Below are positions 6,176-38,430 of a DNA stretch of 64,000 nt, piece after piece. Position numbers and translations under genes: made by a program. The notes below the pieces were generated by a model, which was not told the origin of the DNA, did not search any database, and saw only the letters and a list, made by a program, of their open reading frames with translations. The first letter of the stretch is position 1. Each line of letters starts with the position of its first letter. This DNA comes from Eledone cirrhosa (lineage: Eukaryota): assembly GCA_964016885.1 (NCBI GenBank), contig OZ024741.1:384338001-384402000 (forward strand), read 5' to 3'.

Positions 6176-8032
6176 TCTCCCGATCGGTCCGTCAAGGGTG
6201 CCCTCTCTCTTCCCTTCTGTACGTATTGACTCTCGAGCCTTTACTGCGGAAGCTGGAGCTGTTGCAGGGCATCCCGCTCAAACCGGGACATGGAAAGGCT
6301 GTGTCGGCTTATGCGGACGACATCACCGTGATGGTGTCGGACACCTCAGAAATCGAGGTGGCCGGCACCTTATTGAAGGAATATGAAAGGTTGACAGGAG
6401 CCAAACTTAACCCGGAAAAGTCGGTGGGCTTGTAGCTCGGAACCTGGAGAAGCAAGCCCATGTCGTCCAACAGCATCGTGGGGCGCTGGACGGACGGACC
6501 GGTAAAGTTGCTCGGGGTTTGGTTCGGACCAGACCTCCAGGTGGAAAAGATTTGGGACGAGGTAACGAGCAGGGTAGCCAGTCTCACCTAAAAATGGGCT
6601 GCGTGGAAGCTATCACTGAAAGGTCGCGCGGAGGTGGCGAATGCGTACATCGCGCCCGTCATCTACTAACACCTGACCATCGTGCCCTGCCCCCGTCCGC
6701 GCCTCGTCAAGTTGGAACGGCTCCTCTTCAAATTCTTGTGGAGAGAACAAGTCCCGTTGGTGAGGCGGTCAATCTGCTGCCAGCACCCTCTACGCAGGGG
6801 GCTGGGCATGCCATGGCTAATGATGCGTAGACATGTGCTGAGGCTGCGACATCTCCAGAAATACTGCCTAAACGGTGAACAGGTGTGGTCGCCGTTTATC
6901 AGACGGGCTTTTCCGCAGCTCGTTTCTTTGACTGAGCTGCAGTCCTGGGTCAAGAAGAGACTGAGACTGAGTGACTGGCACCTGGAATGTTGCCAGGCAC
7001 TGACTGCCTTCTACCAAGCGGGCAATGCAATCAGTGGAACTTCCACTCTCGAGTTCTATAGAGGATTAGTGGTGGGCAAGTGCGATGACGCACTCGGAGA
7101 AGCTTTTGGGCCTCGACGAAGTCGAAGTGACCAGTCTGTTCCGGAGGACTTTCGAGCCGAGGACGATGGACAATTTCCAGAAATCCCTCGCTTGGCAGTG
7201 CTACCGGGGGGGGGCACTGCCTGTTCGGGATAAACTCTAAGGTACGGAAGTGCTATCAGACGGACCTGCCCAAAATGCGCACAGCGCGACGAAACCGTTC
7301 TGCACGCACTTGTCCAATGTCCGTGCATTACTGACTTGTGGAGTTATGTCGAACAGCTACTGTCGCGTGTAGAACGGATCCGGCTATCGGCCGAGTCCAT
7401 AGTGAAGATCGACCCGCCGCCTTCCTTTGGTCAGGACGAGCAGGCAATTTTCCTCAGTCTGGTGGCAGTTGCGAAAGAGGTTATATGGTGAACCAGATTA
7501 AAAGGACTGAAGACAAACACTTTTCTCTTCGGCCAATCCCTCATCAACTTCTTCAAGTTTCACCTAGAAAGGAAGGTGAGGGTAGAGAAAGAAGTGCTAC
7601 CCCCCCCCCCCCAGTACATTTGCTAAAAGGTGGATGAATGTGGCGAGAATGGCCCCTGTGAATGGGTCTACTCTGACCATGCGCCTATAGGCTAGCTAAT
7701 TTGAGGAGAGGGGTGCTCTCCCTGGGTGCCCTAGAAGCGCAGGGTGGTTCAGGATTGGTGGGGGTACCCGAGTCACCCCAGGGTCGTCCACACCCTATCG
7801 GGGAATTTATTTTGTCATATTTATGCATAGTTTATTTTATATTTTTATATCTTCATTGTTAAATTAGTCTTGCCATTGTGCACTTTTACTCGACTTTATT
7901 GTAAACCCCCACTGTCCCTGTCTTTGTATTGTCCCCTACATGTCGGCCCTTGTGGCTGATAAATGAAATCATTATTATTATTGTTGATGTCGGCCCTTGT
8001 GGCCAATAAATGAAATCATTATTATTATTATC
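6176..8032 (+). mobile_element. 5'-truncated Tx1-clade LINE, family A (RT C-terminal half, CCHC finger, 3' UTR, TTA tail)
   Basis: Colinear with 13621-15394. YADD motif, several stops and frameshifts. The terminal ~40 nt occurs twice. Confidence 0.92.
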
Positions 8033-8037
8033 ACCGA

Positions 8038-8237
8038 GGGCGGTGGATTGGCAGTATCGGTAGAGGGTCGGACGCCATGCTTTCCAGCATAGTTACGTCC
8101 CTTTATGATCTGAGTTCAAATCCCGCCGAGGTTGACTTTGCCTTTCATCCTTACGGGGTCGATAAAATAAAGTACCAGTAATGCACTGGTTAATTGCTGG
8201 CCTTGTGCCTAAAGTAGAAACAATTATTATTATTATT
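8038..8237 (+). mobile_element. tRNA-derived SINE with (TTA)n tail
   Basis: A box tggcagtatcgg, B box gagttcaaatcc, central gaggttgactttgcctttcatcc...gtcgataaaataaagtaccag, tail ggccttgtgcctaaagtagaaacaattattatt. Confidence 0.85.
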
Positions 8238-8379
8238 ACAGTTGCATTTATCTTGATTTATGTTCATACGAGTTATCACCAAGTCACAACCAGTGACCTC
8301 AAGAGACAACAAGGTCCGCCATGTTCAAGAAAGAACATACATACACACACATGCATCTTTAGGTGTTTAGACTTGTGAT
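8238..8379 (-). mobile_element. 3' UTR-only copy of R4/Dong family I
   Basis: Near-identical to 22492-22631, the 3' UTR of the element at 22492-26611. Flanked by (TTA)n on both sides. Confidence 0.85.
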
Positions 8380-8407
8380 TATTATTATTATTATTATTAT
8401 TATTATT

Positions 8408-9455
8408 GGTCTAAGCGGACGTATTTTGCTCGCTCAAAGTAAGTCGCTTTATTCGCCTGTTAAAATTATTTGTTGTTAAATATTTCTTGTTGTGTAAGGG
8501 ATAATAGCCCTTAGACTTTGCCCCGTGAAGGGGAAAGTATATTTGGGCCTTTTGGTCCAAATATTTGAACTTTTTTTTACATGTTAAAAAATTTACGAAG
8601 AAAAAAAAACATGGCTGAGTCCCCCCCCCCCCCCCCCCCCCCCCGAAAATCAACTAGCCAATCTCTTCGGAAGAACTTTCGGGCCGGGGCCTATGGACAA
8701 CTTCCAGAAATCCCTGGCCTGGCAGTGCTACCGAGGAGCTTTGCCAGTTCGGGATAAACTCTACAGGCATGGAGGTGTCGTCAGCCGGGCATGTCCGATA
8801 GGCGCGCAGAGCGACGAAACCGTCCTGCACGCACTCGTCCAGTGTCCGAGCATTGCTGACTTGTGGGTTTATGTCGAACACCTGCTGTCGCGTATCGGAC
8901 GGATCCAGCTATCAGCTGAGTCCATTGTGAGGATTGCCCTGCCCTCTCCCTTTAGCCGGGAAGGGCAGGCAGTTTTCATCTGTCTGGTGGCCATGGCGAA
9001 AGAGATAGTATGGTGGACACGTTTGAAAGGGCTGAAGACGAGCACTTACCTCTTCGGTGATGCCCTGATTAACTTTTTCAAATTTCATTTGAAAAGGAAA
9101 ATCAGGGTAGAGAGGGAAGTGCTCTCTTCCCAGCATTTTGTTGAAAGATGGGTGAGAGAAGCAAGTATGGCCCGAGTGAATGGGCCTACTCTGAGTATGT
9201 GTCTGTAAATTAAAGGTGGAAAACTGGGAGAGGGCACTTGCCCTGGTGGTCAGGGTCACTGTGGCCTTTTAATGGGCTTTCTCCACAAATGTCCCTCGGA
9301 AGTCTCCCCCCTATTGGGGAATTTTTCATTGTTACTTTTTGTTACATCCTCTGTTTTTGTTTTTTTACACGCAGAAATGCCCATTTGTACTGTCCTGTAT
9401 TGTCCTGTACTGTTGTTAATGTCTACTTTATGTAAACCCTTGTGGTTAATAAAGA

Positions 9456-9489
<34 letters not shown>
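8408..9489 (+). mobile_element. Chimeric Tx1 derivative: family A 5' UTR and ATG fused through a poly-C run to the family C 3' end
   Basis: 8408-8620 matches 9490-9700. 8645-9460 matches ~37336-38145. Confidence 0.88.
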
Positions 9490-9691
9490 GGTCTAAGCGG
9501 ACGTATTTTGCTCGCTCCCAGTAAGTCGCTTTATTTACCTTTTAAAATTATTTGTTGTTAAATATTTCTTGTGTAAGAGATATAAGCCCTTAGACTTTGC
9601 CCTGTGAAGGGGAAAGTATAATATTTGGGCCTTTTGGCCCAAATATTTGAATTTTCTTTACATGTTAAAACATTTACGGAGAAAAAAAAAC

Positions 9692-11671
9692 ATGGCTGAG
9701 CCACGCCCCCCAGCGATATGTCTGCTGTCGTGCGACAACGACGTAGAAGTTGAGAGGAGCGCTACAGCGAAATTAACACGCATTGATAACACAAATACCA
9801 CCACAAACAATGTAAACAAAGACACCAATGATACCAATGAGAACTCTAATTTTGAAAAAAATGACAGTAACAGCGACAACGAAAATACAGATAACAAAAA
9901 AAACAAAAACAAATACAACAACAATATCAACACCACTAATATGAAAACAAATAGCGACAACACCAACAGCAACAATACCAACTGCACCGAGAACAACGGT
10001 GGCAACAAAGACAACAATGATAACAGCGACAGTGCTAACAACAACACCAACAAGAACAACAACACCCCCCAACGAGAAGAAGACTTTCGCTGCAGCAGCA
10101 GCAAAAAAGAGGCCATGCTTCAACATGGACCTCTCAAACAAAGATGAAAAGTTGGCCCAGGCACGGAAGCTCATCAAGCAAGAGCAAACTTGGGCCAACT
10201 TAACTGTCCCGGTAGAAGTTATTGAGGCAGTGGAGCGCAAAACGGTGCATTATAGATGCATCTCAGCACAAACCAAAAGGGCAGCTTTAATCCCACAAGA
10301 AGATGTAGAAGTCGCGCTGAGGTGCATTAGAGAAGACACCCAGTACATAGAGTGGGGCAGACAGTACGGCACCATTTCGGTGTTGTTCAAGTCTGAAGCC
10401 CTCGCTATGAAACACGCTATGACCCCTTGCAAAACCAGCAAGGTCATGATGTACCCCTCCCACATGGGAAAAAAAACGGCCCGTCTCCGCATTCCCAGAA
10501 TCCCACCAGGACTTCACATGTGGTGGCTTCTGGGATGTGTGATTGTGAAGGGGACGGATACAGTCCCTATAGAAGTGACCAGAACGGCCAGAGAGGACTG
10601 GTCCGGAGTTGACCTGGAGATCCTTCTCCAGATCAGGCCCTAGAATCTGAAGACAATCCCGGACCACATCCGCCTTCAGAATGGGACTGTCATTCACATT
10701 ATGACCGAAGGCAAAAGGCCGCAGTGTTTTGTTTGTGGGGAAAAAACCCATTTGCGAGCCTTCTGCCCTCAACTGCTGAAAGAGGCAAGGGGTCGAAAGG
10801 CTCCACTGCTGCCGACGCCGGGGCGAGGACCACAACCAACATCAGCACCGGCAAAACCACCAACAACAACACCAATAGAAAGACCACCACCAACATTGAC
10901 CACCCAGGGGGGAGACGAGGAAAGCTGTCAAATTCTCCCCCCCCCCCAAAAAAAAATACACACACCAATAAAACCATAAACATACATACAGACACACTTA
11001 CAGACACAGACCCCTCATCTACCAGTAGTGAAGATGAGGGAAAACTAAAATCCCCCAAAATACAAAAAAGTAAACACAAAAAGAAAAAAAAAACTCAACA
11101 AAGCACAAAATCACCCACAATAAAAAACGCAGACACCACCCACGCAAACATCTCTCCAATAACACCAACATCAACACCACCATCACCATCACCGTCACCA
11201 GAATCCACCAAACGCAAACAACCGAAACAGACGCAAGAACAAATATACACACAAACATCTGAAACCACAAACATCGCACTCACAACAAACACAGATACAA
11301 CCGAAACAACACCACCAAAACCATCACCACCACAGCCACGCAAACAAATAAAATCATACCAACAAAACATACAAAACTTCGTGCTCGTCAGGAGGGCCAA
11401 CAAGGAACTGATGGCCCTCGTAGCACGAAGTGAAAATATACAAAAAGAGGGGGAACTTATTAAATCGAGCACATTTCGCGTGCCGGAAGATTTGGTTCTG
11501 GTGCGAATGTCGCTCGACATATTCAAAGAAATACGAGACAGCTTTCCTCGGTACGTGGGGACCCCGAACGTAAAACCCACTTCAAGACTTTTAAAGGGGT
11601 TCCCAAAAGAAACCCCACTAAGTATGGAGGTCGAACAATCCGACTATCACAAGAGCCCGGAAGGTAAGTAA
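9692..11671 (+). pseudogene. Tx1-A ORF1 (gag-like), interrupted
   Basis: Asn-rich N-terminus, RRM-like region, CFVCGEKTHLRAFC (CX2CX4HX4C), Pro/Thr-rich linker. Split over ORFs 9647, 9999, 10701 and 10724. Confidence 0.82.
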
Positions 11672-11702
11672 ACCTTCCTCTCTCTCTGTTTAACCTGCCA
11701 AC

Positions 11703-14700
11703 ATGGCCGTATTAAGAGTAGGATGTTTAAATGTTGGAGGCCTGGGATCGTCCTGGAAGCAGGGTCACCTGCTCAACGACCTCAGGTCTATAGAAATGGA
11801 TGTAATTGCCGTCAGAGAGACCAGGATTTCCGACACGCGCGCACTAGCACCCATTTTCGACGACTATCAGATTTTTGCATCTGTTAGCCGGCCGGGAATG
11901 GGAGGCGGGGTGGCAGTGCTGTTTAGGAAAGGCCTGGATCTCGAGGTAAGGTCGATCTACCGGGGCCCGGACGGGAAGGTGTTGGTCCTGGACGTGAACA
12001 ATAATGAAGGTGGTGCCTTTAGACTGGTGGCCGTCTATGCTCCTACTGGGGCAGGGCGGCCGGACTTCTTTAGACGCCTGGAGGCCTTTCTGGTTACGTC
12101 TCGCCCTTTACTGTTAGCGGGGGACTGGAACGGCATCTTAGACGCACGCTGGGACTGTGTGGGAGTATCCGATAGGAGCGGGGGGTGCAAAAGCCTCAAG
12201 AAGCTGATCAGCCAGTTCCAACTGTCTGACAGGTACCGACTAGATTTCCCTAATGCGCCAGTGTGGACCTGGGCTAACCGCATAGGGTCATCTAGATCGT
12301 ATATAGACAGGATATTCATTAGGAAAATAGACAGAAATAGTGTAATCTGTCCACGTTTTGAAACGGTCGCCTATTCAGATCACAAGTGTGTGATCTGTAT
12401 GGTCGACCTAGATAAGACGCGTAGGTTAGGACCTGGTTACTGGAAGCTAAACATGTCATTTCCGGCACGTAAGGCTTACAGGGACCAGGTCAACAATTTA
12501 GTTAAGAAAATGTTGACAGGGGGAATCGTAAACAATAGATGGTGGGGGGCTCTCAAAAGAGAGATTAGAGTAATGTCGATAGAGTTTAGCAAAGAAGTAG
12601 CATTAGAGAAAAATAGAAAGGAGGGGGAGTTGGTAGATAAGTTAGACGAGGCTATTGGTAGTGGCAGTGCAACTGATGTGCTAGCGGCGAGAATGGCATT
12701 AGACCATTTCTTCAATGCGAAACACGAAGGTTGCACTGTCAGAGCTAAGGAGCGTGCTCTGAGAAACGAGGGAACCAAAGCTGTTCGATGGGCCCGCGTG
12801 GCAGAGGCGCAGCGTGATAATAAAACCACGATTCGGTCTTTGACGGACCGAGACGGGCACGAGCTGAACGATTCCAAGAGGATGTGTGAGGCCTTTCGCC
12901 AACATTTTGCTCGGTTGTTCGGGGGAAGTGGCGGGTCAGAGATGGTGGCGGACTTCAGTCCCTACCTCGATGGCTTGCCGCAACTCTCGACGGCTGACGC
13001 TGGGCGCTGCGGAAGGCCAATTACTTCAGCCGAGATTCAGGATTCCCTTGTCGGCTGCATGAGGCGCAAGTCACCCGGTTTGGATGGTCTGCCCTACGAG
13101 CTTTACGTAAATATGCCAGACTTGTTCTCCAATCTCCTCGAAGCCCTCTACTGCAACTGGAAGCAAAACGGGAGTATTCCCAGTTCTGTGAGCCGGGGCG
13201 TAGTGACGCTGATAAGGAAAGGCGAGAACAAGAGGGACACATTAGACAATTTCAGGCCATTAACTCTGCTCAACACAGAGTTTAATATTTTGGCCAGGGT
13301 GTTAGCGAAGAGGTTGGTGCTTGTCGTCGGGGATTTGGTTGGGGAGGCGCAAACTTGCGCAATCCCAACCAGGTCCATACACGACAACCTCCACCTAATG
13401 CAATACATCATAGAGAGGGTAGGGTGTAAACCTGGCTTCGGTGGGGCTCTGATCATTTTAGATCAATCGAGAGCATTCGATAGGGTCGACCATCGGTACC
13501 TGGAGGCTGTCCTCAAGGCGGCTGGCTTCGGCCCCGTCTTCAGAAGTTAGATCGCTGCAATGCACAGCGGCACCTGCTCGATGGTCAAAATTAATGGCCA
13601 CCTCTCGGAACCGTTTCAGGTCTCCCGATCGGTCCGTCAAGGGTGCCCTCTCTCCTCCCTTCTGTACGTATTGACTCTCGAGCCTTTACTGCGGAAGCTG
13701 GAGCTGTTGCAGGGCATCCCGCTCGAACCGGGACGCGGAAAGGCTGTGTCGGCTTATCCGAACGACATCACCGTGATGGTGTCGGGCACCTCAGAAATCG
13801 AGGTGGTCGGCAACTTATTGGAGGAATATGAAAGGTTGATGGGAACAAAACTTAACCCGGAAAAGTCAGTGGGCTTGCAACTCGGCACCTGGAGAGGCAA
13901 GTCCATGCCGTCCAACAGCATCGTGGGGCGCTGGACGGACGGACCGGTAAAGTTGCTAGGGGTTTGGTTCGGGCCAGACCTCCAGGTGGATAAGAATTGG
14001 GACGAGGTGACGAGCAGGATAGCCAACCTCACCCAGAAATGGGCTGAGAGAAAGCTATCACTGAAAGGGCGGGCGGAGGTGGCGAACGCGTACATCGCGT
14101 CCGTCATCTACTACCGCCTGACCGTCGTGCCTTGCCCCCGTCCACGCCTCGCCAATTTGGAACGGCTCCTTTTCAAATTTTTGTGGAGGGGACGGGTCCC
14201 GTTGGTGAGGCGGTCCATCTGCTGCCAGCACCCTCTTCGTGGAGGGCTGGGCATGCCGTGGCTAATGATGCGCAGACATGCGCTGAGGCTGCGACATCTC
14301 CAGATATTTTGCCTAAACGGTGAACAGGTGTGGTCGCCGTTTGTTAGACGGGCCTTTCCGCAGCTCATCTCTTTGACTGAGCTGCAGTCCTGGGTCAAGA
14401 AGAGACCGAGACTGGGCGACTGGCATCTGGAATGTTGCCAGGCGCTCACTGCACTCTGCAAGGTGGGCAATGCGGTCAGTGGAACTTCCACTCAAGATTT
14501 CTATAGAGGATTAGTGGAGGGCAAGTGCGATGACGTACTAGGAGAGGCTCTGGGCGTCAACGAAGTAGAACTGACCAGTATGTTCCGGAGGACTTTCGAG
14601 CCGGGGACGATGGATAACTTCCAGAAATCCCTCGCTTGGCAGTGCTACCGGGGGGCGCTGCCGGTTCGGGATAAACTCTACAGGCACGGAAGTGCTGTCA

Positions 14701-15125
14701 GACGAACCTGCCCGAGATGCGCGCAGAGCGACGAAACCGTTCTGCACGCACTCGTCCAGTGTCCGTGCATTGCTGACTTGTGGGGTTATGTCGAACAGCT
14801 ATTGTCGCGTGTAGAACGGATCCGGCTATCGTCCGAGTCCATAGTGAAGATTGACCCGCCGCCTTCTTTTGGTCAGGAAGGGCAGGCAATTTTCCTCTGC
14901 CTGGTGGCAGTAGCGAAAGAGGTTGCATGGTGGACCAGGTTGAAAGGACTGAAGACAGACACTTTTCTCTTCGGCCAATCCCTCATCAACTTCTTCAAGT
15001 TTCACTTGGAAAGGAAGGTGAGGGTGGAGAGAGAAGTGCTGCCCCCCAGTACATTTACTGAAAGGTGGGTGAATGTGGCGAGAATGGCCCGTGTGAGTGG
15101 GCCTACTCTGATCATGCGCCTGTAG
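11703..15125 (+). pseudogene. Tx1-A ORF2 (APE endonuclease + reverse transcriptase + CCHC), one internal stop
   Basis: APE motifs LNVGGL, ET, GDWN, IDR, SDH. RT motifs KSPGLDG, FRPLTLLN, DQSRAFDRV, VRQGCPLS. Catalytic YADD mutated to YPND. CPRC..ETVLHALVQC. In-frame TAG at 13548. Confidence 0.93.
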
Positions 15126-15595
15126 GCTGGTGAATTCGAGAAGGAGAGGGGTGCCCTTCCCGGGTGCCCTAGGAGCGTCGGGTGGCTCAGGACTGGTGGG
15201 GTGCTTGAGTCAACCCTGGGTGGTGATCCCTCTTATTGGGGAACTTTCATTGTTGTATTTTTATTGTTATTTTGTTTTTTGTTATTTATACTTACTCGAT
15301 CTCTATGTAAACCCCCACTGTCCCTGTCTATTGTGTTGTCCCCTATATGTCGGCCCTTGTGGCCAATAAATGAAATCATTATTATTATTATTATCGCCTC
15401 CAGTTTTTTTTTCAACAGTTTACCTCGTTTTCAACCGTTCTAAACCTTTTATTCAAGTTTTAAACTTGATAAAAGTTTAGAAGAAGTGACCCACCTAATA
15501 CAGGGGTTTACTCGTAAATAATACGGCACCCCTTTACGGGATGTCGTATTGTGTAAAATAAAAAAATATTATTTGAAAAACAAATTTCTTTCAAC

Positions 15596-17558
15596 ATGGA
15601 TAACACAAGAGAGAGAGAGTGCTGTCAGACAACACAGAGAGAGAGGGAGACTTTGTCAGCATGTCAACAAGACAGCGTTCCAGCGGAGGTAAATTTAAAA
15701 GAAAATATTACGAAGGAAAAGAGGAACAATAGCATGTTTAATGATATTGTTACAGATTTAAAATTACCAAATATTTCCAACACAAACAACAATAACACCA
15801 ACAACAACTATATCAATAACAACAGCAACAACAAAAATAGCAGCGGTAAGGTCGAGAACGACAATATCAACAGCCACAACAACAATAATAGTAGGAACAG
15901 TATCAACAAAAACAATAATAATAACAACAGCCACAATAACAGTAACAACAACAACAGTATCAACGAAAACATCAACAATAATATCGATACCTGTAACAAC
16001 GATCTCAGTACCACCAGTAAGACCAGGAGCGGCAGCAATAGTGGTGCTGCTGAAAAAGGGACCTCTTCTTTTGGAGGTGTCGCCCGAAATATAGAAACGG
16101 TGTTAGTCACAGAGGAGGAGATGGCAGTCGCAAGGGCCATGGTGACAAGAAGCGCCAATGGAGTCTCCCTGAAACTTACACCCGATTTTTTTCAAGAACC
16201 AGCAGCTACGGACGGTGACTTACCGCACCGTAAGCAAAATTTCACATCGGGTGGAGAGAGCCAAGGAGGCTCAAATCCAAAAGGCCTTGGGGTGCGTCTG
16301 GGCGCGCAAAACCCACATCACCCGAGGCAGAAAGTACGCTACAGTCTCGCTCTTTGGAAACTCTAAAGAGTAAGGAGATAGTCTTGGTGCCCTCCTACTG
16401 CGGACAGAAAATTGTGAGGGTCAAAGTGACCCAGGTCCCACCCGACGTTCCGATACCTTGGCTGGCCGCGTCTGTCCTTGCTGGAATCGAGGACAGGACG
16501 ACCATGCTGCAAGTAGAGAAAATAGGGAGAGAGAACTGGTCAGGTATAGGCATGCAAATGTTTATACAAACTGACCAGGAGTGTATCGACACTATCCCCG
16601 ATATCATAGACCTCGAGGAAGGACTCCAACTCCCTATAAGCGTGGAAGGAAGACGGCCAAAATGTTATCTCTGTTGGTCAAAGGTCACCTCAGGGGTTTT
16701 TGCCCGCAGAAGACAGCGAAGAAGAACGCCCCTCTCCTTCCAATACCTGGTGCGCTGCTACCAAGAGCAGGGCAGGCAACAAACGCAGAAGCCACTTCCA
16801 CGGTGAGTAGGAGGGCACCCGTACCAAGGCCACGGACAACTAAAGCAGCAGCATCAGTGGCGGCAACACCAGTAGTTACATTTGCAGTAGCTGCACCAGC
16901 AACAAAATTGCCGGAGAGGGCTCCACTACCACCACCAACAGCCGTGGAGCACATACGCCTCCCAGACGCCACGTAATCCGACATGAAGTCTGAGGCGGGA
17001 GTGAAGTGGTAAACGATCTGCCACAAAAAAAAACAAAAAACAAAAACCCCTTAGATTCACCCTCCAAAAGCAAAGGCATACAAAGAGGGGTAAAGGCTGC
17101 AAGGAGACTTGCAGCAACACCACCACCATCACCATCACCACCACAAGCACCACCGCCAACAACAACCACACCACCACCAACATCACCATAAACACCAACA
17201 ACGCAAACACAACAAAACACACACACCAAACAGCAACAAAATTACCCCTCCCCCCAAAAAGTACACAGCCATAAACATAGCAAAAAAAGAACTCATAAAA
17301 TATATAAAGCAGCACACAGACATCACGGAAAAAAATTACTACACCCCACCAACACCAAGAACTCTCCCGACAAACATAAGCATCATCGAAATCTCAATAG
17401 AACAATACAAACCTTTAAAACAAAAATTCCCCAACGCAGTTGGGGACTTCAGAGGGACGGTTACCAAGGGGATATACACTGACATCCTCTTGGAAACACC
17501 CATGACCAGCGAAAGGGACGGTTCTACTGTCCCTTCACCACACGAACAAGGTAAGTGA
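15596..17558 (+). pseudogene. Tx1-B ORF1, frameshifted
   Basis: Asn-rich N-terminus, LVPSYCGQ..V.VT.VPP, EGRRPKCYLC...GHLRGFC knuckle broken by a frameshift. Confidence 0.8.
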
Positions 17559-17590
17559 CCCTTTCTCATTTGCCCCGTTTCTCATCCAAC

Positions 17591-20500: not shown

Positions 20501-20998
20501 ATAACTTCCAAAAATCCCTGGCCTGGCAGTGCTACCGGGGAGCGTTGCCGGTTCGAGATAAGCTCTACAGGCACGGAAGTGCCGTCAGCCGAGCCTCTCC
20601 GAGATGTGTGCAGAGCGACGAAACCGTCGTGCAAGCACTCGTTCAGTGCCCGAGCATTGCTGACTTGTGGAGCTATGTCGAACAGTTGCTGTCGTCGTAT
20701 GTAGGACTGATCCGGTTATCGACTGAGTCCATTGTCAGATGGTCTCGCCGTCTTCCTTCGTGGAGGAAGGGCAGGCGGTTTTCATCTGCCTGGTGGCCAT
20801 GGCGAAAGAGATTGTGTGGTGGACAAGGTTGACACTTTCCTCTTCGGCGAATCCCTAATTAACCTTTTCAAGTTTTACTTGAAGAGGAAAATCAGGGTGG
20901 AGAGGCAAGTGCTGCCTTCTAGCAAGTTTGTTGAAAGGTGGGTGAATGTAGCGAGAATGGTCCGAGTGAACGGGACCGCTCTGAATATACGCCTGTAG
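17591..20998 (+). pseudogene. Tx1-B ORF2 (APE-RT), multiple stops and frameshifts
   Basis: INARGL, ISET, GDWN, YLDR, TDH, FRPITLLN, DQSKAFDRV, VRQSCPLS. Confidence 0.9.
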
Positions 20999-26611: not shown

Positions 26612-26612
26612 A

Positions 26613-26651
<39 letters not shown>

Positions 26652-26659
26652 GTTATTGT

Positions 26660-29213
26660 TATTCCTTGAATCTCAGTCATTGATGTTGGTTAACTGGAAA
26701 GTCCGTTGGATTGAATATCAAGCCACTACCTGCAGCCTCAGATATTCAGGACGTATCGGAGGGTTCTTGCCGTTCCAAGCAAGCATGCCTTTTGAAGCGT
26801 TCCAAAAAGCGTGAAGGGGCCGATTTTCTTTAACCATCCCTGGAAACCTTTGGAGATAGTCCCCAGTGCGCCTATGACAATCGGGATCACTTTGACTTCA
26901 TGGCAGTTCCAAATCCTTTTCACCTCCCACTTTAGGTCCTGGTATCGGTTAATTTTCTCCCTCTCCTTCTCTTGCACTCTCGTGTCGAACGGGCAGGCCA
27001 CATCCACAATCAGGCACGATCTTTTTTCTTTGTCCACAACCACCAGGTCAGGTCTATTGTGTTCCAGATTTTTGTCCGTCTGTATCCTAAAATCCCACAG
27101 CACCTTCACCTGACTGTTCTCCATCACCGCCTCTGGCCTATGCTCATACCATTTCTCAGAATGTGGTAGATTGTTTACTTTGCACAGGTGCCAGTGGATC
27201 ACCCTGCCCATCACATCGTGTCTCCAGCCCTTATAGTGGGTCTGGGCTAGGTGTTTACACTCGGACACAATGTGAGCCACAGTCTCCTCTCTCTCTCCAC
27301 AGATCCTGCACAGTGGGCTAGCCTCCTCCTTGTAGATATGGTGCTTCAACCACTTCGTTTTGAGGGCCTGCTCCTGCGCAGCCATTAGCATTCCTTCTGT
27401 AGCCTTTTTGAGGTCTCCTCTTCTCAACCAGTTCCATGTCTGTGGATCTCTAAATTCAGTTTTCCCAAAGAAGGTACTATGAAGGGATTTTCCCTTAAGG
27501 CTGCTCTTCCTCCTTGATGTTATTTCCTCCTTGGATATCCCCTGGCCTACTGTCCCCTCCTTCAGTACAGCTCTGAGCATTGGCTCCTTACTATAGGTCA
27601 CGTATTTGTATAGGTTGTTTTTCTCCATCTGAACACAGTCCTCTATGCTGATAAGACCTCTTCCACCCTCAGATCTCCTTAGGTAGAGTCTATCGACATC
27701 ACTCCTCTTGTGGAACATGTTGTAGATAGTCAATAGCTTCCTAGTTTTCCTATCCATTTCTTTTTGTTCAGCAACATTCCATCTCAGAATTCCCGCACTG
27801 TACCTAATAATAGACACAGCTCGGGAATTTACTGCGCTTATGGCATTTCTGCTGTTCAGATGTGACTTCAATACGCTCCTTACTCTCCGAATGTATTCAG
27901 TTCTTAACAATTCCTTCATTTTTTTGTTCTTTATGCCATCAGCCTCCAGAACGCCCAAATACTTGTATCCTTCCTCAGAGTCAATTTCCTTTATCATCTC
28001 ACCTGTTGGTATCTGGATCCCGTTACTTCTGCTCAACCTACCCCTCCTCATCACAATGACTCCACATTTACCAATACCAAACTGCATACATATATCACTG
28101 CTGAAAATACGGACAGTGTCAACAAGCACATCCAACTCCTTCTCACTTTTCCCGAAGAGCTTAAGATCGTCCATGAAGAGGAGGTGATTGATGGTAAGCT
28201 CTCCCCTTCCCAACTTGTATCCTGCTCTCACTTTTCGCAGCATAATGGTCAAGGGCATCAGGGCAAGGACAAACAACAGAGGGGACAGGCTATCTCCCTG
28301 GAAGATACCTCTCTTGATCTTCACGCTTCCCAAGGATACTCCAGTTGATGTCAACTCTGTCTCCCAGGACCCCATACTCCTGCCCAGCAACTGTCTGATG
28401 TTATCTGCCACCCTGAAGATCTCCAGGCTTTTGGTGATCCAGGAATGAGGCACCATGTCAAATGCCTTTCTGTAGTCTATCCATCCCATGGCAAGATCAG
28501 TGTGTCTCCTCCTACAATTCCCCATTACCATCTTATCAATAAGCAACTGGTCCTTTGTACCACGTGACTTCTTTCGGCATCCTTTCTGTTCGTCCGGCAA
28601 CAAGTTGTTTGTGTGGAGGTGATGGTAGATTTCCTCAGACACAATGCTCGTCAACAGTTTCCACATTACGGGCAGACATGTGATAGGTCTATAGTTGGTA
28701 ACATCATTACCCTTGATTCGGTCTTTCATTATCAGAACTGTGGTACCTTTTGTCAACCACTCTGGCACCTCACCCGACACCAAGCAGTCATTGAACATGG
28801 CCGTCAGCTTCGGGTGGAGGGATGTTAAATGTTTAATCCAATACCCCTGCACACCATCTGGGCCTGGTGATTTCCAGTTGGTTAGTTTTTTGGCTTGCCC
28901 CTTAAGAGTTTCAACTGTGATACTCAAATCAGTCTGTTGCTGTGCCTGCTCACCGATCTCCCTCTGTACTGTCTCAATCCACCCTGCCTGGGCATTGTGT
29001 CTAACATCCTGCTCCCATATTCCTCTCCAGAATGTTTTAGCTTGTTCCGCCCCAGGGATCAAGTCGTTGCCTCTTTCTTTCCCCTCAAGCTGTCCAAACA
29101 GCATCTTCTGGTTGTTGTCGAACATGCGGTTCTGTTTATACTGACTGACTCTGTTCTCGTATCGCCTGATTTTGGCACTCTTTGCTACAATGCGTTGCTT
29201 CAATTCCTCTATG
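26660..29213 (-). mobile_element. 5'-truncated R4/Dong family II element
   Basis: RT-CCHC-RLE frame plus a short 3' UTR. (TAA)n at both ends. Confidence 0.92.
26738..29213 (-). CDS. Uninterrupted but 5'-truncated RT-RLE reading frame of Dong-II
   Basis: ORF 26738..29317 without its microsatellite-derived poly-Ile start: WKSPGPDG, YRPITCL, DYRKAFD, QGDSLSP, FMDD, CRIC..ETVAHIVSEC, RHD, PDLVVVD..DV, EKINRYQDL. Confidence 0.85.
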
Positions 29214-29291
<78 letters not shown>

Positions 29292-29296
29292 GTTAT

Positions 29297-29732
29297 TACT
29301 CTTTGAGTCTCAGTCATTGATGTTAGTTAACTGGAAAGTTTGTTGAAATGAATATCAAGCCACTACCTGCAGCCTCAGATATTCAGGACGTATCGGAGGG
29401 TTCTTGCTGTTCCCAGCAAGCATGCCTTTTGAAGCGTTCCAAAAAGCGTGAAGGGGCCAATTTTCTTTAACCATCCCTGGAAACCTTTTGAGATAGTCCC
29501 TAGTGCGCCTATGACAATCGGGATCACTTTGACTTCATGGCAGTTCCAAATCCTTTTTACCCCACACTTTAAGTCCTGGTATCGGTTAATTTTCTCCCTC
29601 TCCTTCTCTTGCACTCTCGTGTTGAATGGGCAGGCCACATCCACAATAAGGCACGATCTTTTTCTTTGTCCAAAACCACCAGGTCAGGTCTATTGTGTTC
29701 CAGTTTCTTGTCCGTCTATATCCTAAATTCCC
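29297..29732 (-). mobile_element. Short 3' fragment of Dong-II
   Basis: Matches 26660-27097. (TAA)n on both sides. Confidence 0.9.
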
Positions 29733-29733
29733 A

Positions 29734-29799
<66 letters not shown>

Positions 29800-29803
<4 letters not shown>

Positions 29804-32527
29804 CTTGAATCTCAGTCATTGATGTTGGTTAACTGGAAAGTCCGTTGGAATGAATATCAAGCCACTACCTGCAGTCTCAGATATTCAGGACGTATCGGAG
29901 GGTTCTTGCTGTTCCCAGCAAGCATGCCTTTTGGAGCGTTCCAAAAAGCGTGAAGGGGCCGATTTTCTTTAACCATCCCTGGAAACATTTGGAGATAGTC
30001 CCCAGTGCGCCTATGACAATCGGGATCACTTTGACTTCATGGCAGTTCCAAATCCTTTTTACCTCCCACTTTAAGTCTTGGTATCGGTTAATTTTCTCCC
30101 TCTCCTTCTCTTGCACTCTCGTGTCGAATGGGCAGGCCACATCCACAATCAGACACGCTCTTTTTTCTTTGTCCACAACCACCAGGTCAGGTCTATTGTG
30201 TTCCAGTTTCTTGTCCGTCTGTATCCTAAAATCCCACAGCACCTTCACCTGATCGTTTTCCATCACCGCCTCTGGCCTATGCTCATACCATTTCTCAGAA
30301 TGTGGTAAATTGTTTACTTTGCACAGGTGCCAGTGGATCACCCTGCCCATCACATCATGTCTCCAGCCCTTATAGTGGGTCTGGGCTAGGTGTTTACACT
30401 CGGATACAATGTGAACCACAGTCTCCTCTCTCTCTCCACAGATCCTGCACAGTGGGCTAGCCTACTCCTTGTAAATATGGTGTTTCAACCACTTCGTTTT
30501 GAGGGCCTGCTCCTGCGCAGCCATTAACATTCCTTCTGTAGCCTTTTTGAGGTCTCCTCTTCTCAACCAGTTCCATGTCTGTGGATCTCTAAATTCAGTT
30601 TTCTCAAAGAAGGTACTATGAAGGGATTTTCCCTGAAGGCTGCTCTTTCTCCTTGATGTTATTTCCTCCTTGGACATCTCCTGGCCTACTGTCCCCTCCT
30701 TCAGTACAGTTCTGAGCATTGGCTCCTTACTATCAGTCACGTATTTGTATAGGTTGTTTTTCTCCATCTGAACACACTCCTCTATGCTGATAAGACCTCT
30801 TCCACCCTCAGATCTCCTTAGGTAGAGTCTATCGACATCACTCCTCTTGTGGAACATGTTGTAGATAGTCAATAGCTTCCTAGTCTTCCTATCCATTTCT
30901 TTTTGTTCAGCAACATTCCATCTCAGAATTCCCGCACTGTACCTAATAATAGACACAACTCGGAAATTTACTGCGCTTATGGCATTTCTGCTGTTCAGAT
31001 GTGACTTCAATACGCTCCTTACTCTCCGAATGTATTCAGTTCTTAACAATTCCTTCATTTTTTTTTTTCTTTATGCCATCAGCCTCCAGAATGCCCAAAT
31101 ACTTGTATCCTTCCTCAGAGTCAATTTCCTTTATCACCTCACCTGTTGGTATCTGGATTCCGTTACTTCTGCTCAACCTACCCCTCCTCATCACAATGAC
31201 TCCACACTTACTAATACCAAACTGCATACATATATCACTGCTGAAAATACGGACAGTGTCAACAAGCACATCCAACTCCTTCTCACTTTTCCCGAGGAGC
31301 TTAAGATCGTCCATGAAGAGGAGGTGATTGATGGTAAGCTCTCCCTTTCCCAACTTGTATCCTGCTCTCACTTTTCGCAGCATAATGGTCAAGGGCATCA
31401 GGACAAGGACAAACAACAGAGGGGACAGGCTATCTCCCTGGAAGATACCTCTCTTGATCTTCACGCTTCCCGAGGATTCTCCAGTTGATGTCAACTCTGT
31501 CTCCCAGGACCCCATACTCCTGCCCAGCAACTGTCTGATGTTATCTGCCACCTTGAAGATCTCCAGGCTTTTGGTGATCCAAGAATGAGGCACCATGTCA
31601 AATGCCTTTCTGTAGTCTATCCATCCCATGGCAAGATCAGTGTGTCTCCTCCTGCAATTCCCCATTACCATCTTATCAATAAGTAACTGGTCCTTTGTAC
31701 CACGTGACTTCTTTCGGCATCCTTTCTGTTCGTCCGGTAACAAGTTGTTTGTGTGGAGGTGATGGTAGATTTCCTCAGACACAATGCTCGTCAACAGTTT
31801 CCACATTACGGACAGACATGTGATAGGTCTATAGTTGGTAACATCATTACCCTTGATTCGGTCTTTCATTATCAGAACTGTGGTACCTTTTGTCAACCAC
31901 TCTGGCACCTCACCCGACACCAAGCAGTCATTGAACATGGCCGTCAGTTTCGGGTGGAGGGATGTTAAATTTTTAATCCAATACCCCTGCACACCATCTG
32001 GGCCTGGTGATTTCCAGTTGGTTAGTTTTTTTGTCTGCCCCTTAAGAGTTTCAACTGTGATACTCAAATCAGTTTGTTGGTGTGCCTGCTCACCGATCTC
32101 CCTCTGTACTGTCTCAATCCACCCTACCTGGTCATTATGTCTAACATCCTGTTCCCATATTCCTCTCCAGAATGTTTTAGTTTGTTCCGCCTCAGGGATC
32201 AAGTCGTTGCCTCTTTCTTTCCCCTCAAGCTGTCCAAACAGCATCTTCTGGTTGTTGTCGAACATGCGGTTCTGTTTATACTGACTGACTCTGTTCTCGT
32301 ATCGCCTGATTTTTGCACTCTTTGCTACAATGCGTTGCTTCAGTTCCTCTATGATAATATTTAGCTTTTTCCTCCTAGTTTTGTACTTTATTTCCAGTCT
32401 ATTTTTAGTGCCTATGTTTTTTAGTGTCCCATTCTGTAGTGACTCAATCTTTCCTATGTCATTTCTCATTTCCTTGATTTGACCACTTAGTCGTTTCTTC
32501 CACCAAGGCTCTGCTCTTTCTTGTCTG
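29800..32527 (-). mobile_element. 5'-truncated Dong-II copy with a frameshift and a stop
   Basis: ORFs 31036..32469, 30462..31058 and 29877..30419 are near-identical to the 26738 ORF. (TAA)n on both sides. Confidence 0.92.
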
Positions 32528-32756
32528 TTATTATTATTATTATTATTGGCGACCTACGTAGTAAATCGTATCATCGTGAGATCCGCAAAGGTTTGTTATT
32601 TCCGTTTGTTAAAAATTACCATTTATGGAAAATTTTTATTATTAACCATATATAAGCGCACATACATTGTTTTCTGAAAAGGACACCCAAAAAGATTGGG
32701 GCCTTGTGCCCAAAATTTAAACTTTTATTATTATCAAAAAGTTTCTTTGAAAAAAA

Positions 32757-34771
32757 ATGGCTAATTCACCTCTGCACCAAGCAGCCGAAAGCCTTCCTCA
32801 CAAATTAACACCTCACACCGACACCACCATTGTAAATGTTACTACGATTGCCAACACTACAAAAAGTATAAGCAGTAGCAATATTTTAAATTTGTCTCAG
32901 GCAGACATTCATTTCCCGCCATTACCAATGACTGCAGGTGTTAAAGCCTCCACCACCACCACCACCGCGACAACCACCACCCCACCACCACCACCCCCAA
33001 CACCACCGCGACAACAGAAACAAAAGAAGAAAAAAGTTTATTAACTCGTGATGTCGAAATGAAATCAAGCAAAATGGACACTTCCCCACCAAAGACGACT
33101 GACGTCACCACTACCACAACTGAAACTAAAATTAATATTAACACAAATAACGATAGCAACAACAACAACAATGACATTATAAAACCCCCCCTCAGTTTCG
33201 CCAGAGTAGCAAAACAATTCGAAGCATTTACGGTAACTCAGGAGGATTTAGAAAATGCCAAACAAATGGTAAAGAAAGATGGGTACAGGGTCAGCCTCAC
33301 CCCCACCCACCCCACCTAATAAAATGGAGCATCGGCGCCTATGCACCGTGTCGTATCGAACGATAAATGTAAAATCGCGCCGAGTGGAACGGGCATCCGA
33401 GTCCCAAATCCAAAAAGCTTTGGGACATGTGTGGGCAAGAAAAACCCACATCAGACGTGGGCAGAAGTATGGAACCGTGGACGTGTTCTTTGAAACACCA
33501 GAGGAGGGCAGAGAACACTCCATGGCCCCATTAAGAAGTGACGACTTCACACTCGTCCCAAGCTATTGTGGCCAGAGACTCGTAAAGATCAGGGTGACCC
33601 ACGTTCCACCGGCCATCGAAATTCCCTGGCTAATAGCGGCCGTCCTCGCCGGCATCGAAGCCAACACAAAAATAATAGCAATAGCAAAAGAAAAGCAGGA
33701 GAACTGGTCCGGATCCGGGATGGAGCTTCTGATCCAAGCGGACCAAAAAAGCATTGAGGAGATCCCAGAGGTAATAGACCTCACTGACGGCAGCCACCTC
33801 ACGGTAATTGTCGAGGGCAGAAGACCTAGGTGTGTCGTTTGTGGTGAAGGAACCCACCTAAGGGCTTTCTGCCCTCAGGCTAAAAGGTTGAGGCCACCTC
33901 TCCTACCCACCCCAGTGACACAACCATCAACACCACCAGTAGCAGAGATGGCAGCAACAACTGTAGCAGCAACAACAGAAGCAACTATAACAGCAACAAC
34001 CCCAGCAACAGTAGCAAAACCAACACCACCACCACCACCAGCAAAACCAATACCACCATCACCCAACGCTTCAGAACTAGCACCAGCGCCTACACTATCC
34101 ACCACGCCACAACCAAAACTAACGCCTGTGGAGGATTTTCCACTCCCCGGCTATCACAACTGGAGACAGATTGTGACGACGAGGAGTGGGAAACGATATC
34201 CGGAAAAAAAAAAAGAAACCAAAAAAGAAAAAATTCTCTTCCTTCCCCCTCCAAAAACAAAATACAGAGGGAAACAAATAAACTAAGAAACAAAAACGTT
34301 AGGACAGATATGCCACCATCCACACCAGCATCACCAACCCCATCAACCCAAACACCAACACCATCACCATCATTAACTCCAACACCACCATCACCTACAC
34401 CACAAAAGTTACCAAAATGCGAAACAGAAACAAACCCACAACAAACGCAAACAAAACAAAACAACCAAAACGATACACACTACACAGCATTAAATTTGAA
34501 CAACAAGCAATTATTACACTACATCCAACACAACACCAGCATCACAGAAAAAGACTACACAACAACCCCAAAATTCACACCACCTCCACACATACAAATC
34601 ACTCACATCACACAGAAAACGTACATGACACTAAAACAAAAATTCCCCAAAGACATCGGAGACTTCCGACAAGCACTCTCCAGGAGGATTTATAAGGACA
34701 TCCTTCCTGAGGAGGCCACAAGCAGTGAAAAGGATGGAAAAACCGTCCTTCCCCTACGAGAAGTAAGGTAA
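32757..34771 (+). pseudogene. Tx1-C ORF1, frameshifted
   Basis: LVPSYCGQ, EGRRPRCVVCGEGTHLRAFC knuckle, C-terminus homologous to B (LKQKFP..IGDFR). Confidence 0.83.
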
Positions 34772-34805
34772 GTGGTCTTTCCCATCTTTTCCACTCCTTT
34801 TCAAC

Positions 34806-37800
34806 ATGACCTCACTCAGAATAGGCAGCATAAATGCGCGTGGCTTGGGGTCGTCATGGAAGCAGGGCCACCTGCTCAACGACCTCAGGTCACTAAACAT
34901 AGATGTAGTGGCCATCAGCGAGACCAGAATCTCCGAAGCACAGGCTTTCGCACCGATCTTCGGCGGCTACGATTTGTACGCATCTCCCAGCCGTCCGGGA
35001 TCGGGGGGAGGAGTTGCTGTGCTTTTTCGGAGAGGTTTGGATCTTGCCATACGGGCCATCTTCCTGGACCCAGAAGGTAAGTTGGTGGTGCTGGACGTGA
35101 CCAGCAGGGACGGGCAAGCTTTCAGGTTAGTGGCCGTCTATGCCCCGACAGGAGCAGGGCGGCCTGATTTCTTCCGGCGTCTGGAGATCTTTCTTGGAAC
35201 GTCCCGCTCTTTAGTGTTAGTGGGCGACTGGAACGGGATCTTAGATGCACGCTGGGATTGTTTGGGATTAGTGGATAGGGAAGGAGGGTGCAAGAGTCTC
35301 ACCAACCTGCTCAGGCGTTTTGAACTGTCTGACAGGTACCGAATGGATTTCCCGAATGTACCAATGTGGACTTGGACAAATCGCATAGGGTCATCCAGAT
35401 CATATCTAGATAGAGTATTTTGTAGGGAAATAGATAGGTCTAGCATAGGCTGTCCACAATTCAAGATAGTCAGCTACACGGACCACAAATTCGTGATCTG
35501 TGTGCTTGACTTAGATAGGCTTCATAGGCGAGGACCCGGCTACAGGAAGCTAAACGCGTCCTTACCAGCGCGCAAGGCCTACAGAGACCGGATTAGCGAA
35601 CTAGTTAAGCGGGCGTTGACGGGGGCCATATTCAACAACAAGTGGTGGTTTGCTCTGAAAAGAGCAGTTAGAATAGAGTCCATTAGGTTTATTAAGACTT
35701 TAGCAATAGAGAAAAATAGAGCAGAGGGAGAACTAGTTAGAAAATTAGATGAAGCGCTTAGCAAAGGCATCGCGACCGACGTAGTTGCGGCGAAATTGGC
35801 CCTTGACCAATTCTTCAATGCAAAGCACGAAGGCTGCGTTGTCAGAGCTAGGGTGCGTGCTCTCAGACACGAGGGGACGAAAGCCGTTTAATGGGCCCGA
35901 GTGGCGGAGGCGCGTCGTGGCAACAAAGCCACGATCCGGTCTTTGGTGGACCACGACGGGCGCATGCTACTCGATCCCGGGCAAATGTGTGAAGCTTTTC
36001 AGCGACACCTCGCTCAACTGTTCGGGGGCAGTGGCGGGCCGGATCGAGGGATGGACTTTAGTGTCTACCTCGACGGACTGCCGCGGCTTTCGGCCACTGA
36101 GGCGGAGTGTTGCGAAAAGCCGATAACAACCGCTGAAGTACGGGATGCAATGACTAGTTGCACAAGGGGTAAATCGCCTGGTTTGGATGGTCTGCCCTAT
36201 GAACTTTACGTACAAATGCCAAACTTGTTCGGAGGCCTCTTGGCGGACGTCTACTGCAACTGACAACAGAACGGGAGAATTCCCAGCTCTGTGAGCCGAG
36301 GAGCTTTGGCGCTGCTGAGAAAGCATCCGAACAAGGGGGATAACATAGATAATTTTAGGCCCATAACTCTGCTAAACACAGAGTTCAAGATGTTGGCCAA
36401 GGTGCTCGGTCCGCCAAGGATGTCCCCTCGCGTCCCTATTGTACGTATTGACTCCCGAGCCATTACTGCACAAACTGGAGACGTTGAGAGGGATCCCGCG
36501 CGAACTAGGATGCGGAAGATCCGTGTCAGCATATGCCGACGATGTCACCGTAGTGGTGTCGAACGCCAAACACATCGAGGCGATCGGCACTACACTAAGA
36601 GAATACGAAGCGGTGACAGGAGCAATGATCAACCAGGAAAAGTCAGTGGGCCTGCAGCTCGGCACCTGGAGAGGCAGGTCCATGCCGTCCAACAGCGTCG
36701 TCGGGCGCTGGACAGACGGACCGGTTAAATTGCTAGGAGTCTGGTTCGGTCCAGACCTCCAGACGGACAAAAACTGGGACGAGGTGACGAGCAGGGTGGC
36801 TTCTCTCACCCAGAAATGGGCCGAGAGGAAGCTATCCCTGAAAGGTCGAGCGGAGGTGGCTAACGCGTACATCGCGTCCGTCATCTACTACCGCCTGACC
36901 ATCGTACCTAGTCCTAAGCCCCCGCCTGACTGCGCTGGAGCGTTTGCTCTTTCGCTTCTTGTGGAAGGGACGCGCTCCGATGGTCAGGCGGTCCATCTGC
37001 TGTCAACACCCGCTACGTGGAGGGCTAGGCATGCCGTGGCTGATGATGCGCAGACACGCGCTCAGGTTACGACATCTCCACCTCTTCCTCGACGGTGATC
37101 AGGTGTGGTCGCCGTTTGCTAGACACGTTTTTCCCCAGCTCGTCTCCTTGACGGAGCTGCAGTCCTGGGTCAAGCGAAGACCGAGAAGGAGCGCTTGGAG
37201 ACTGGAATGTCTTCAGGCGCTCACAGCCCTCGACCAATCGGGCAATGTGATCGGTGGAAACTCCACCTTGGCGTTCTATAGGGGATTAGTGGAGGGGAAG
37301 AGCGACGACGTACTTGGAGAAACTCTAGGCGTCGACGAAAATCAACTAGCCAATCTCTTCGGAAGGACTTTCGGGCCGGGGCCTATGGACAACTTCCAGA
37401 AATCCCTGGCCTGGCAGTGCTACCGGGGTGCTTTGCCAGTTCGGGATAAACTTTACAGGCATGGAGGTGCCGTCAGCCGGGCATGTCCGAGATGCGCACA
37501 GGGCGACGAAACCGTCCTGCACGCACTCGTCCAGTGTGCGAGCATTGCTGACTTGTGGGTTTATGTCGAACACCTGCTGTCACGTGTAGGACGGATCCAG
37601 CTATCAGCTGAGTCCATCGTGAGGATTGCCCCGCCCTCTTCCTTTAGCCGGGAAGGGCAGGCAGTTTTTATCTGTCTGGTGGCCATGGCGAAAGAGATAG
37701 TATGGTGGACACGTTTGAAAGGGCTGAAGACGAGCACTTACCTCTTCGGTGATGCCCTGATTAACTTTTTCAAATTTCATCTGAAAAGGAAAATCAGGGT

Positions 37801-37900
37801 AGAGAGGGAAGTGCTCTCTTCCCAGCATTTTGTTGAAAGATGGGTGAGAGAAGCAAGTATGGCCCGAGTTAATGGGCCTTCTCTGAGTATGTGTCTGTAA
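34806..37900 (+). pseudogene. Tx1-C ORF2 (APE-RT-CCHC) with stops, a frameshift and a ~0.3 kb deletion
   Basis: APE motifs intact and YADD present. Sequence jumps from LAKVL to the SVRQGCP region at ~36405. Confidence 0.92.
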
Positions 37901-38142
37901 ATTAAAGGTGGAAAACTGGGAGAGGGCACTTGCCCTGGTGGTCAGGGCCACTGTGGTCTTTTAATGGGCTTTCTCCACAAATGTCCCTCGGAAGTCTCCC
38001 CCCTATTGGAGAATTTTTCTTTGTTTTTTATTTCATCCTCTTTTTTTTTTACACGCAGAAATGCCCATTTGTACCGTCCTGTATTGTCCTGTACTGTCCT
38101 TAATGTCTACTTTATGTAAACCCTTATGGTTAATAAAGAAAA

Positions 38143-38183
<41 letters not shown>

Positions 38184-38189
<6 letters not shown>

Positions 38190-38430
38190 CTGAAAGGGTC
38201 GGGAAGGCAGAGTCCTCAGACACTCCTTCCAGTGTGTCCTGTCAGAAGCAAGCGTGTCCAACTGATCCGGCTGAATCCCCAAGCGTGTCCAGCCAAGCTC
38301 ATGGATATTATCCAACCATCTTGCTCGGGGTCTACCCCTGGGTCTCTTGGCTGTTGGTTTTGCTCGTAAAATTTGTCCAACGATTCTTTCCTGAGACATT
38401 CTAACCACATGCCCATAGTATCCATTTAGC
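38184..38430 (-). mobile_element. 3' end of an RTE-clade LINE with (TAA)n tail
   Basis: GYYGHVVRM..RIV..IL..P..KRPRGRPRARWLDNI...LASDR..W is the typical RTE ORF C-terminus. Its stop codon runs into the TAA repeat. Confidence 0.8.

Follow-up and report, generated by a model that had tools for sequence, protein, structure and literature searches.

A polarized retrotransposon array in which Tx1-like and Dong-like elements share an (ATT)n microsatellite in opposite orientation

Introduction

Targeting of tandem repeats has been described for several groups of retrotransposons. The Tx1 families Kibi and Koshi and the Tx1 families of crocodilians, which are L1-group elements with an apurinic/apyrimidinic endonuclease (APE), insert into (TC)n, (TTC)n and (TTCC)n or (TTTC)n microsatellites, respectively (PMC4494074, PMC3812793). 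Dong elements, including Bombyx Dong, DongAg and DongBg of the snail Biomphalaria, possess a single open reading frame (ORF) with a reverse transcriptase (RT), a CCHC finger and a restriction-like endonuclease (RLE), and lie in (TAA)n (PMC3812793). The Bombyx families TRAS and SART occupy one telomeric repeat in opposite orientation and form arrays, and a telomeric Tx1 element is known in Anolis (PMC10088271). Microsatellite-targeting Tx1 elements, TAA-targeting Dong elements and opposite-strand co-occupation of a repeat are thus already known. The mechanism of microsatellite targeting is described as "not well understood" (PMC3812793), and how APE-type retrotransposons acquire or alter sequence specificity is the wider question (PMC3812793, PMC1950540). 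Here we describe an array of Tx1-like and Dong-like elements in a window of 64 kb (C2:384338001-384402000, the whole stretch of DNA analyzed) from a 3.0-Gb octopod-like genome assembly.

As judged from published descriptions, the Tx1-like families reported here differ from Kibi, Koshi and the crocodilian families in their targets, which are (ATT)n, (TATC)n or a site in a 72-bp minisatellite, in their octopod-like host genome, and in an apparent target switch within one young clade. The Dong-like families, of which there are two, differ from Dong in nothing essential and are co-arrayed with Tx1-like elements. Both TRAS and SART belong to the R1 clade of APE elements and are telomeric, whereas here an APE group and an RLE group share an interstitial microsatellite at many loci. 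According to octopus surveys, L1-Tx1 and Dong-R4 elements are either abundant or have recently been active, and the passages on these elements name no target (PMC13282606, PMC8967140); Dong-R4 is among the recently active long interspersed elements (LINEs) of Octopus vulgaris (PMC13282606). The first-pass annotation of the window knew of no described (TTA)n-specific Tx1 family co-arrayed with Dong, and in the open literature, with Repbase and subscription journals outside the search, we likewise found no description of an ATT- or TATC-targeting Tx1 element or of a Tx1/Dong co-array. The pattern is real and extends across whole families, and known principles account for most of it. Its new parts are the ATT target, the co-occupation by APE and RLE elements, and the target switches among close relatives.

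Two endonuclease classes in one microsatellite

Retroelement units were located with BLAST comparisons to units taken from the window itself, with Pfam and by direct reading of the sequence. Fifteen units occupy positions 6176-38422 (Table 1), where the first-pass annotation had counted at least 14 abutting one another. Seven Tx1-like pieces of families A, B and C (APE, RT and zf-RVT) and two short interspersed elements (SINEs) lie on the + strand, while five Dong-like pieces (two of family B and three of family A) and one 3' piece of an RTE element lie on the - strand, the orientations that the annotation had also given. Tracts of (TTA)3 or longer, 3-25 units in length, are present at 12 of the 14 inter-unit junctions. 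There are 15 such tracts within the array versus one in the remaining ~32 kb of the window; (TAA)3 or longer occurs once within the array, inside an ORF, and three times outside it. The earlier statement that almost all units are separated only by (TTA)n does not hold at two junctions, these being the Tx1-B to SINE junction (21297|21298) and a junction at 8621-8645, where a Tx1-A 5' untranslated region (UTR) passes via ~24 nt of poly-C into a Tx1-C 3' fragment. The poly-C junction is also the single exception to the claim that no unit interrupts another. No unit of the array retains a complete intact ORF2. Most probably, independent insertions have piled up in the array, with Tx1-like elements lying in (ATT)n such that the repeat is on their own sense strand and Dong-like elements lying in the same repeat in reverse. 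Nicking of opposite strands by the two groups, together with renewal of the target at each insertion, is the likely cause. This reading builds on family-wide flanks, a fixed orientation and the independent origin of the window copies, all of which the data show.

Flanks were scored in best genomic hits by a strict rule, requiring two or more repeat units ending no more than 6 nt from the junction, with window copies excluded. Full-length 5' ends satisfied this rule in 29/29 copies of Tx1-A, 29/29 of Tx1-C and 22/28 of Tx1-B (one further Tx1-B copy was not anchored), and five of the six remaining Tx1-B copies have tracts interrupted by GTT or TTT. A 5' motif of Tx1-C has 1,678 exact matches in the genome, and all of the first 100 in genome order, a sample that avoids ranking bias, are preceded by ATT repeats. 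Full-length Dong-B copies mostly begin after TAA tracts. Truncated copies provide a stricter test because they cannot carry a 5' leader; among best hits, with internal deletions excluded, they lie at the repeat in 7/8 cases for Tx1-C, 8/9 for Dong-A and 16/19 for Dong-B, where the chance background for a matching repeat 6-mer is 0.2%. One sequence type makes up more than 20% of the Tx1-like flanks, which is the level taken to indicate target preference in PMC4494074, and since these flanks are (ATT)n or (TATC)n, the target is not the (TC)n or (TTC)n of Kibi or Koshi. No clear target-site duplications beyond the repeat were seen in 20 Tx1 loci read by eye. The preference of the Tx1-like elements for ATT is strong, not absolute. 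At least two further Tx1-like families with other 5' UTRs begin right after ATT tracts (L241, L213, L229, L492, L506, L513; L038). A (TTC)n-targeting sister family was considered and rejected, the candidate being a single TTC-tailed 3' end.

Orientation was scored in neighboring pairs at 441 loci of the same genome, de-duplicated and including no window junctions; the loci were picked around these families, and the counts thus speak to orientation, not frequency. Across a tract, Tx1-Dong pairs are opposite in 100/101 cases, while Tx1-Tx1 and Dong-Dong pairs share a strand in 56/58 and 39/41. The SINE lies on the same strand as Tx1 in 56/61 pairs and opposite to Dong in 25/25. In the first 100 of 6,096 Tx1-C-type 3' ends, neighbors are no more than 12 kb apart in 26/99 cases versus 1.9 expected if ends were uniformly placed, three of the close pairs stemming from short local tandem repeats. 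Trains are common, and the array in the window is one instance of a genome-wide pattern rather than an exceptional locus. Flanks and orientation together support, across the genome, the core of the annotation's proposal, namely that an APE-type and an RLE-type group share (TTA)n/(TAA)n in opposite orientation.

These data also bear on the possibility that the elements insert without preference, TTA being just a 3' tail and the units having built up passively in a tolerated region. Such an account fits the RTE family, whose 5' flanks are random, fits the SINE to a large extent, and could accommodate the leftmost unit of the array (6176), which has no TTA at its 5' junction. For the Tx1-like and Dong-like families, random 5' flanks and random orientation were looked for and were not seen; both are far from random, and Tx1-C-type 3' ends within 12 kb of each other share a strand in 25/26 pairs versus 33/65 for pairs more than 50 kb apart. 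Insertion without preference is contradicted by these results and is scarcely credible as an explanation of the array.

In target-primed reverse transcription, the priming strand is the complement of the RNA tail. It follows that Tx1-like elements would use the TAA strand and Dong-like elements the TTA strand, with nicks made in (TAA)n by the Tx1 APE and in (TTA)n by the Dong RLE. Priming of reverse transcription would take place on repeat units at the 3' end of the RNA, and full-length 5' ends would be joined with the help of a few such units that the RNA brings along. Each insertion would split the tract and add a tail of the same polarity, providing fresh target on both sides, so that trains would extend and remain polarized even if the two groups never interacted. 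The short ATTA(T) site present in each tail could explain how SINEs came to join the array. In practical terms, a large share of recent octopod LINE insertions would land in each other's tails, microsatellite markers based on ATT or TATC will often be linked to an element, and trains of this kind are likely to cause trouble in assemblies.

Sister families in other repeats

Sister Tx1-like elements 0.5 Mb away (L236 and L237, C2 ~384.85 Mb) are flanked by (TATC)n. These families show 71-74% DNA identity to Tx1 families A-C, are about 66% identical to the ATT families in the best ORF2 segment, and build head-to-tail trains of their own (L236, L237; L361-L390). An RT tree of 36 rows, taken from 41 candidates with at most three for each label, rooted at the midpoint and containing no curated references, places the TATC families as sister to Tx1-A (99/99); Tx1-C, two rows nearest Tx1-B (87-89%) and a protein of Argonauta hians fall outside this pair. 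This topology suggests that ATT is likely the ancestral target and TATC a switch from it. The genome contains 17,107 matches to a degenerate ORF2 motif, the first 30 of which comprise four of ATT type, 11 at a minisatellite site and 15 TATC-family relatives, several with degenerate tails. In the minisatellite relative, copies all terminate at the same position of the 72-bp unit (L547, L549, L557-L562 and L573-L575, all in the first 11 Mb of C1), with six of the 11 loci in one tandem cluster. Several of these loci have downstream sequence in common, and the target may therefore sit within a dispersed repeat.

The ATT and TATC families differ in the first loop of the endonuclease (SS in ATT families, MP in TATC families) and in its hairpin loop (IGS versus SGT), which is predicted to contact DNA and has been implicated in the target choice of L1 and Tx1L (PMC1950540). 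We consider it an even chance that these elements form an undescribed octopod Tx1-like clade of more than 17,000 copies that has divided AT-rich repeats among close sisters, (ATT)n being ancestral and (TATC)n and the minisatellite site derived, via a few endonuclease-loop changes and/or an altered RNA-borne repeat, with the ATT branch and Dong, on opposite strands, occupying thousands of tracts together to give polarized, self-extending trains. If true, no closer natural pair would yet be available for tests of how target specificity switches. As close families reside in different repeats and only a few of their predicted DNA contacts differ, swaps of endonuclease and tail could separate protein recognition from RNA-DNA pairing.

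A less likely account of the same array is that the Tx1 endonuclease has no more than a preference for a short Y-TAT core and that base pairing by the RNA-borne repeat, present as both 3' tail and 5' leader, picks out the site, such that a change of tail alone would switch the target. Y-TAT is indeed found at the ATT, TATC and minisatellite 3' junctions, truncated copies show weaker flanks, and the ATT-tailed SINE goes into ATTA(T) with 9-19 bp duplications in 22/28 copies. RNA-target pairing may add to the choice of integration site, and the structure of the loop has been found to outweigh its sequence (PMC1950540). Among the 5' flanks of the TATC families, 14/29 satisfy the strict rule and 12 more carry one TCTC variant at the same place; together these support the reading of targeted independent insertions, and the shared variant also fits an RNA-borne repeat. 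Because this variant occurs at only 7/665 positions of the tract background, about 10 nt of upstream repeat were likely inherited from the donor RNA. Inherited flank variants of this sort resemble those of R2, in which target sequence on the RNA 5' end yields uniform junctions and junction variants spread (PMC3774820). R2, with its upstream self-cleavage, differs in being an RLE element of 28S ribosomal DNA. Against a role for pairing alone, the endonuclease of Tx1L shows sequence specificity in vitro (PMC1950540), there is a consistent difference between ATT and TATC families at the two loops, both predicted to contact DNA, and young truncated copies, which have no 5' leader, are at ATT in 7/8 cases. 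A poly(A) was found on 1/297 Tx1-type 3' ends (L438, C2 277.55 Mb; ~25 nt, then (TATC)n), and this TATC-family copy nonetheless has (TATC)n at both ends, which favors protein-led targeting (n=1).

Independent insertion versus duplication

Each of the eight window segments compared is more closely related to a copy elsewhere in the genome than to any within the array, indicating that the train grew by separate insertions. The window copies are 90-97% identical to one another and differ in their end points.

Several observations weigh against the reading of the array as piled-up, targeted insertions. When taken in genome order and read by eye, truncated Tx1-C-type ends are at ATT in only ~5-6/13 cases, the remainder including two in (TTC)n and one on the wrong strand, and truncated Tx1-A copies are at ATT in ~3/11, with three more abutting another element's tail. 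Part of this weakness may be due to later deletions across the junction, which would mimic truncation; internal deletions are present in ~6/20 Tx1-A loci. The 5' repeat that appears to travel with the RNA means that full-length flanks overstate target specificity. The poly-C junction and the sequence behind it require another process, as positions 8644 to ~9840 are 98-100% identical to C2 ~384.84 Mb, 0.5 Mb away, before identity drops to ~95%; this patch would be either a conversion patch or a mis-join. Contigs of four public runs cover most of Tx1-C, in three organisms, and none spans the array.

The lack of a spanning read and the 1.2-kb patch behind the poly-C are also what might be expected had tandem duplication or unequal crossing-over involving a few units produced the train, or were it an assembly artefact, and to these may be added the 47-bp tail duplication behind the first unit. 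A comparable array does exist in the assembly: seven full-length Dong-B copies (L524-L530, C2 353.61-353.64 Mb) follow one another every ~4.9 kb, separated by (TAA)7; they share 99.2-99.9% identity over the compared stretch and appear to reflect either tandem amplification or an assembly artefact. The window differs from that array in the lower identity and differing end points of its copies and in their closer relatives elsewhere. In addition, five families alternate along it, and junctions of these types are found again at about 100 other places where Tx1 meets Dong. Duplication or artefact is thus a very unlikely source of the train as a whole. Segmental duplication of the entire array at C2:384.84 Mb was rejected, as the near-identity spans only ~1.2 kb.

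Identity of the element families

A genomic Tx1-C copy with an open stretch of 1121 aa matches Pfam Exo_endo_phos, RVT_1 and zf-RVT, and the Tx1-like ORF1 has a C-x2-C-x4-H-x4-C knuckle. The Tx1-like ORF2 is nearer to the L1 group than to RLE elements (human L1 ORF2, E 3e-50, versus R2, E 6e-21). It matches two proteins labelled "Transposon TX1" by similarity with 304 and 191 bits; human L1 scores 174 bits, a value taken from a different library. Among the matches listed, most of them unnamed, the sole named close homologue is the Argonauta hians protein, at 73% identity over 43% of the query, from which an octopod host is likely. The families are accordingly termed Tx1-like, a probable assignment by domain order, similarity and target, the RT tree having no L1 or curated Tx1 rows. 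The Dong-A translation contains RT followed by a CCHC finger and a PD-(D/E)xK endonuclease, with no APE, as judged from motifs read in the translation and an RVT_1 match. The nearest structures to the Dong-like protein are R2 proteins (E 2e-31), and none of the 120 homologues listed carries a family name. The R4/Dong label is likewise a probable one, given by domain order, similarity, characteristic motifs and target. Metagenome relatives were found at 80 loci, mostly 24-32% identical and without any (TTA)5+ tract, and are too distant to inform. Best hits fall on contigs C1-C4 (54% of bases) in 31-38/40 cases for the Tx1-like and Dong-A families, 19/40 for the SINE and 23/40 for RTE, with possible bias from ranking ties.

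Organization of the window

The units of the array are listed in Table 1. A stretch at 32700-32733, within the Tx1-C 5' UTR, resembles the 3' end of the SINE and Tx1 and is followed by (TTA)3; as it is also found in other matched copies, it belongs to the Tx1-C element.

Table 1. Retroelement units of the array in window coordinates, with adjoining tracts
Unit	Position	Strand	Adjoining tract	Remarks
Tx1-like family A, 5'-truncated	6176..7971	+	5' junction without TTA	RT to 3' end
Repeat and duplicated 3' end of first Tx1-A	to 8030			(TTA)3, 47-bp tandem duplication, (TTA)4
SINE (~190 bp, ATT tail)	8031..8223	+	then (TTA)5	passenger
Dong-like family B, final ~140 bp	8239..8379	-	(TTA)9 at 8379-8405	
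Tx1-like family A, 5' UTR fragment	8406..8630	+		terminates in poly-C run 8621-8645
Tx1-like family C, 3' fragment	8644..9460	+	then (TTA)9	
Tx1-like family A, full length	9488..15378	+	then (TTA)5	frameshifted ORF1; ORF2 (APE, RT, zf-RVT) from 11703, in-frame stop 13548-13550
Tx1-like family B, near full length	15394..21297	+		~22 bp absent at 5' end; broken ORFs
SINE	21298..21482	+	then (TTA)3	abuts Tx1-B without TTA
Tx1-like family C, 5'-truncated	21491..22471	+	then (TTA)7	small internal deletion
Dong-like family B	22493..26613	-	(TTA)12 at 26614-26649	~780 bp short at 5' end; frameshifted ORF
Dong-like family A, 5'-truncated	26662..29214	-	(TTA)25 at 29215-29289	821 aa open through C-terminus (RT, CCHC, PD..D..K)
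Dong-like family A, final ~435 bp	29300..29734	-	(TTA)22 at 29735-29800	
Dong-like family A, 5'-truncated	29801..32527	-	(TTA)6 at 32528-32545	
Tx1-like family C, full-length ends	32546..38144	+	(TTA)14 at 38145-38186	ORF2 start 34806; ~320-nt RT deletion at 36404
RTE-like LINE, 3' fragment	38187..38422	-		bystander; ends at stop codon, own GAA tail absent

Passenger elements and other features

The inclusion of the SINEs and the RTE piece in the shared niche, as proposed in the first-pass annotation, was not supported by closer analysis. The SINE 5' junction satisfies the microsatellite rule in only 8/29 copies, and the target-site duplications, nearly all of which begin with ATTA, indicate short ATTA(T) sites. 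In the RTE family, 29 other copies end in a GAA tail and show random 5' flanks, and in 0/29 of these was a (TAA)3+ tail or 5' tract found; the piece in the window lacks the family's tail. The final ~30 nt of both SINEs of the array resemble the Tx1 3' end, and the duplications begin ATTA(T), from which a Tx1-like element may be the partner LINE of the SINE. ARAGORN made no tRNA call at the SINE heads.

An Rfam scan of window positions 5500-39500 gave no real match, ribozymes included, the true Dong-B 5' end lying outside the scanned sequence, and weak Pfam matches to MBD and Surfac_D were regarded as chance. Outside the array, a 12-bp minisatellite at 41515-42041 (~44 copies, 95% matches) yields long spurious ORFs, and two copies of a repeat at 54095-55272 and 58963-60158 are 72% identical. 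ARAGORN predicts a tRNA-Ser(tga) on the - strand at 63216-63289, which may be a SINE head.

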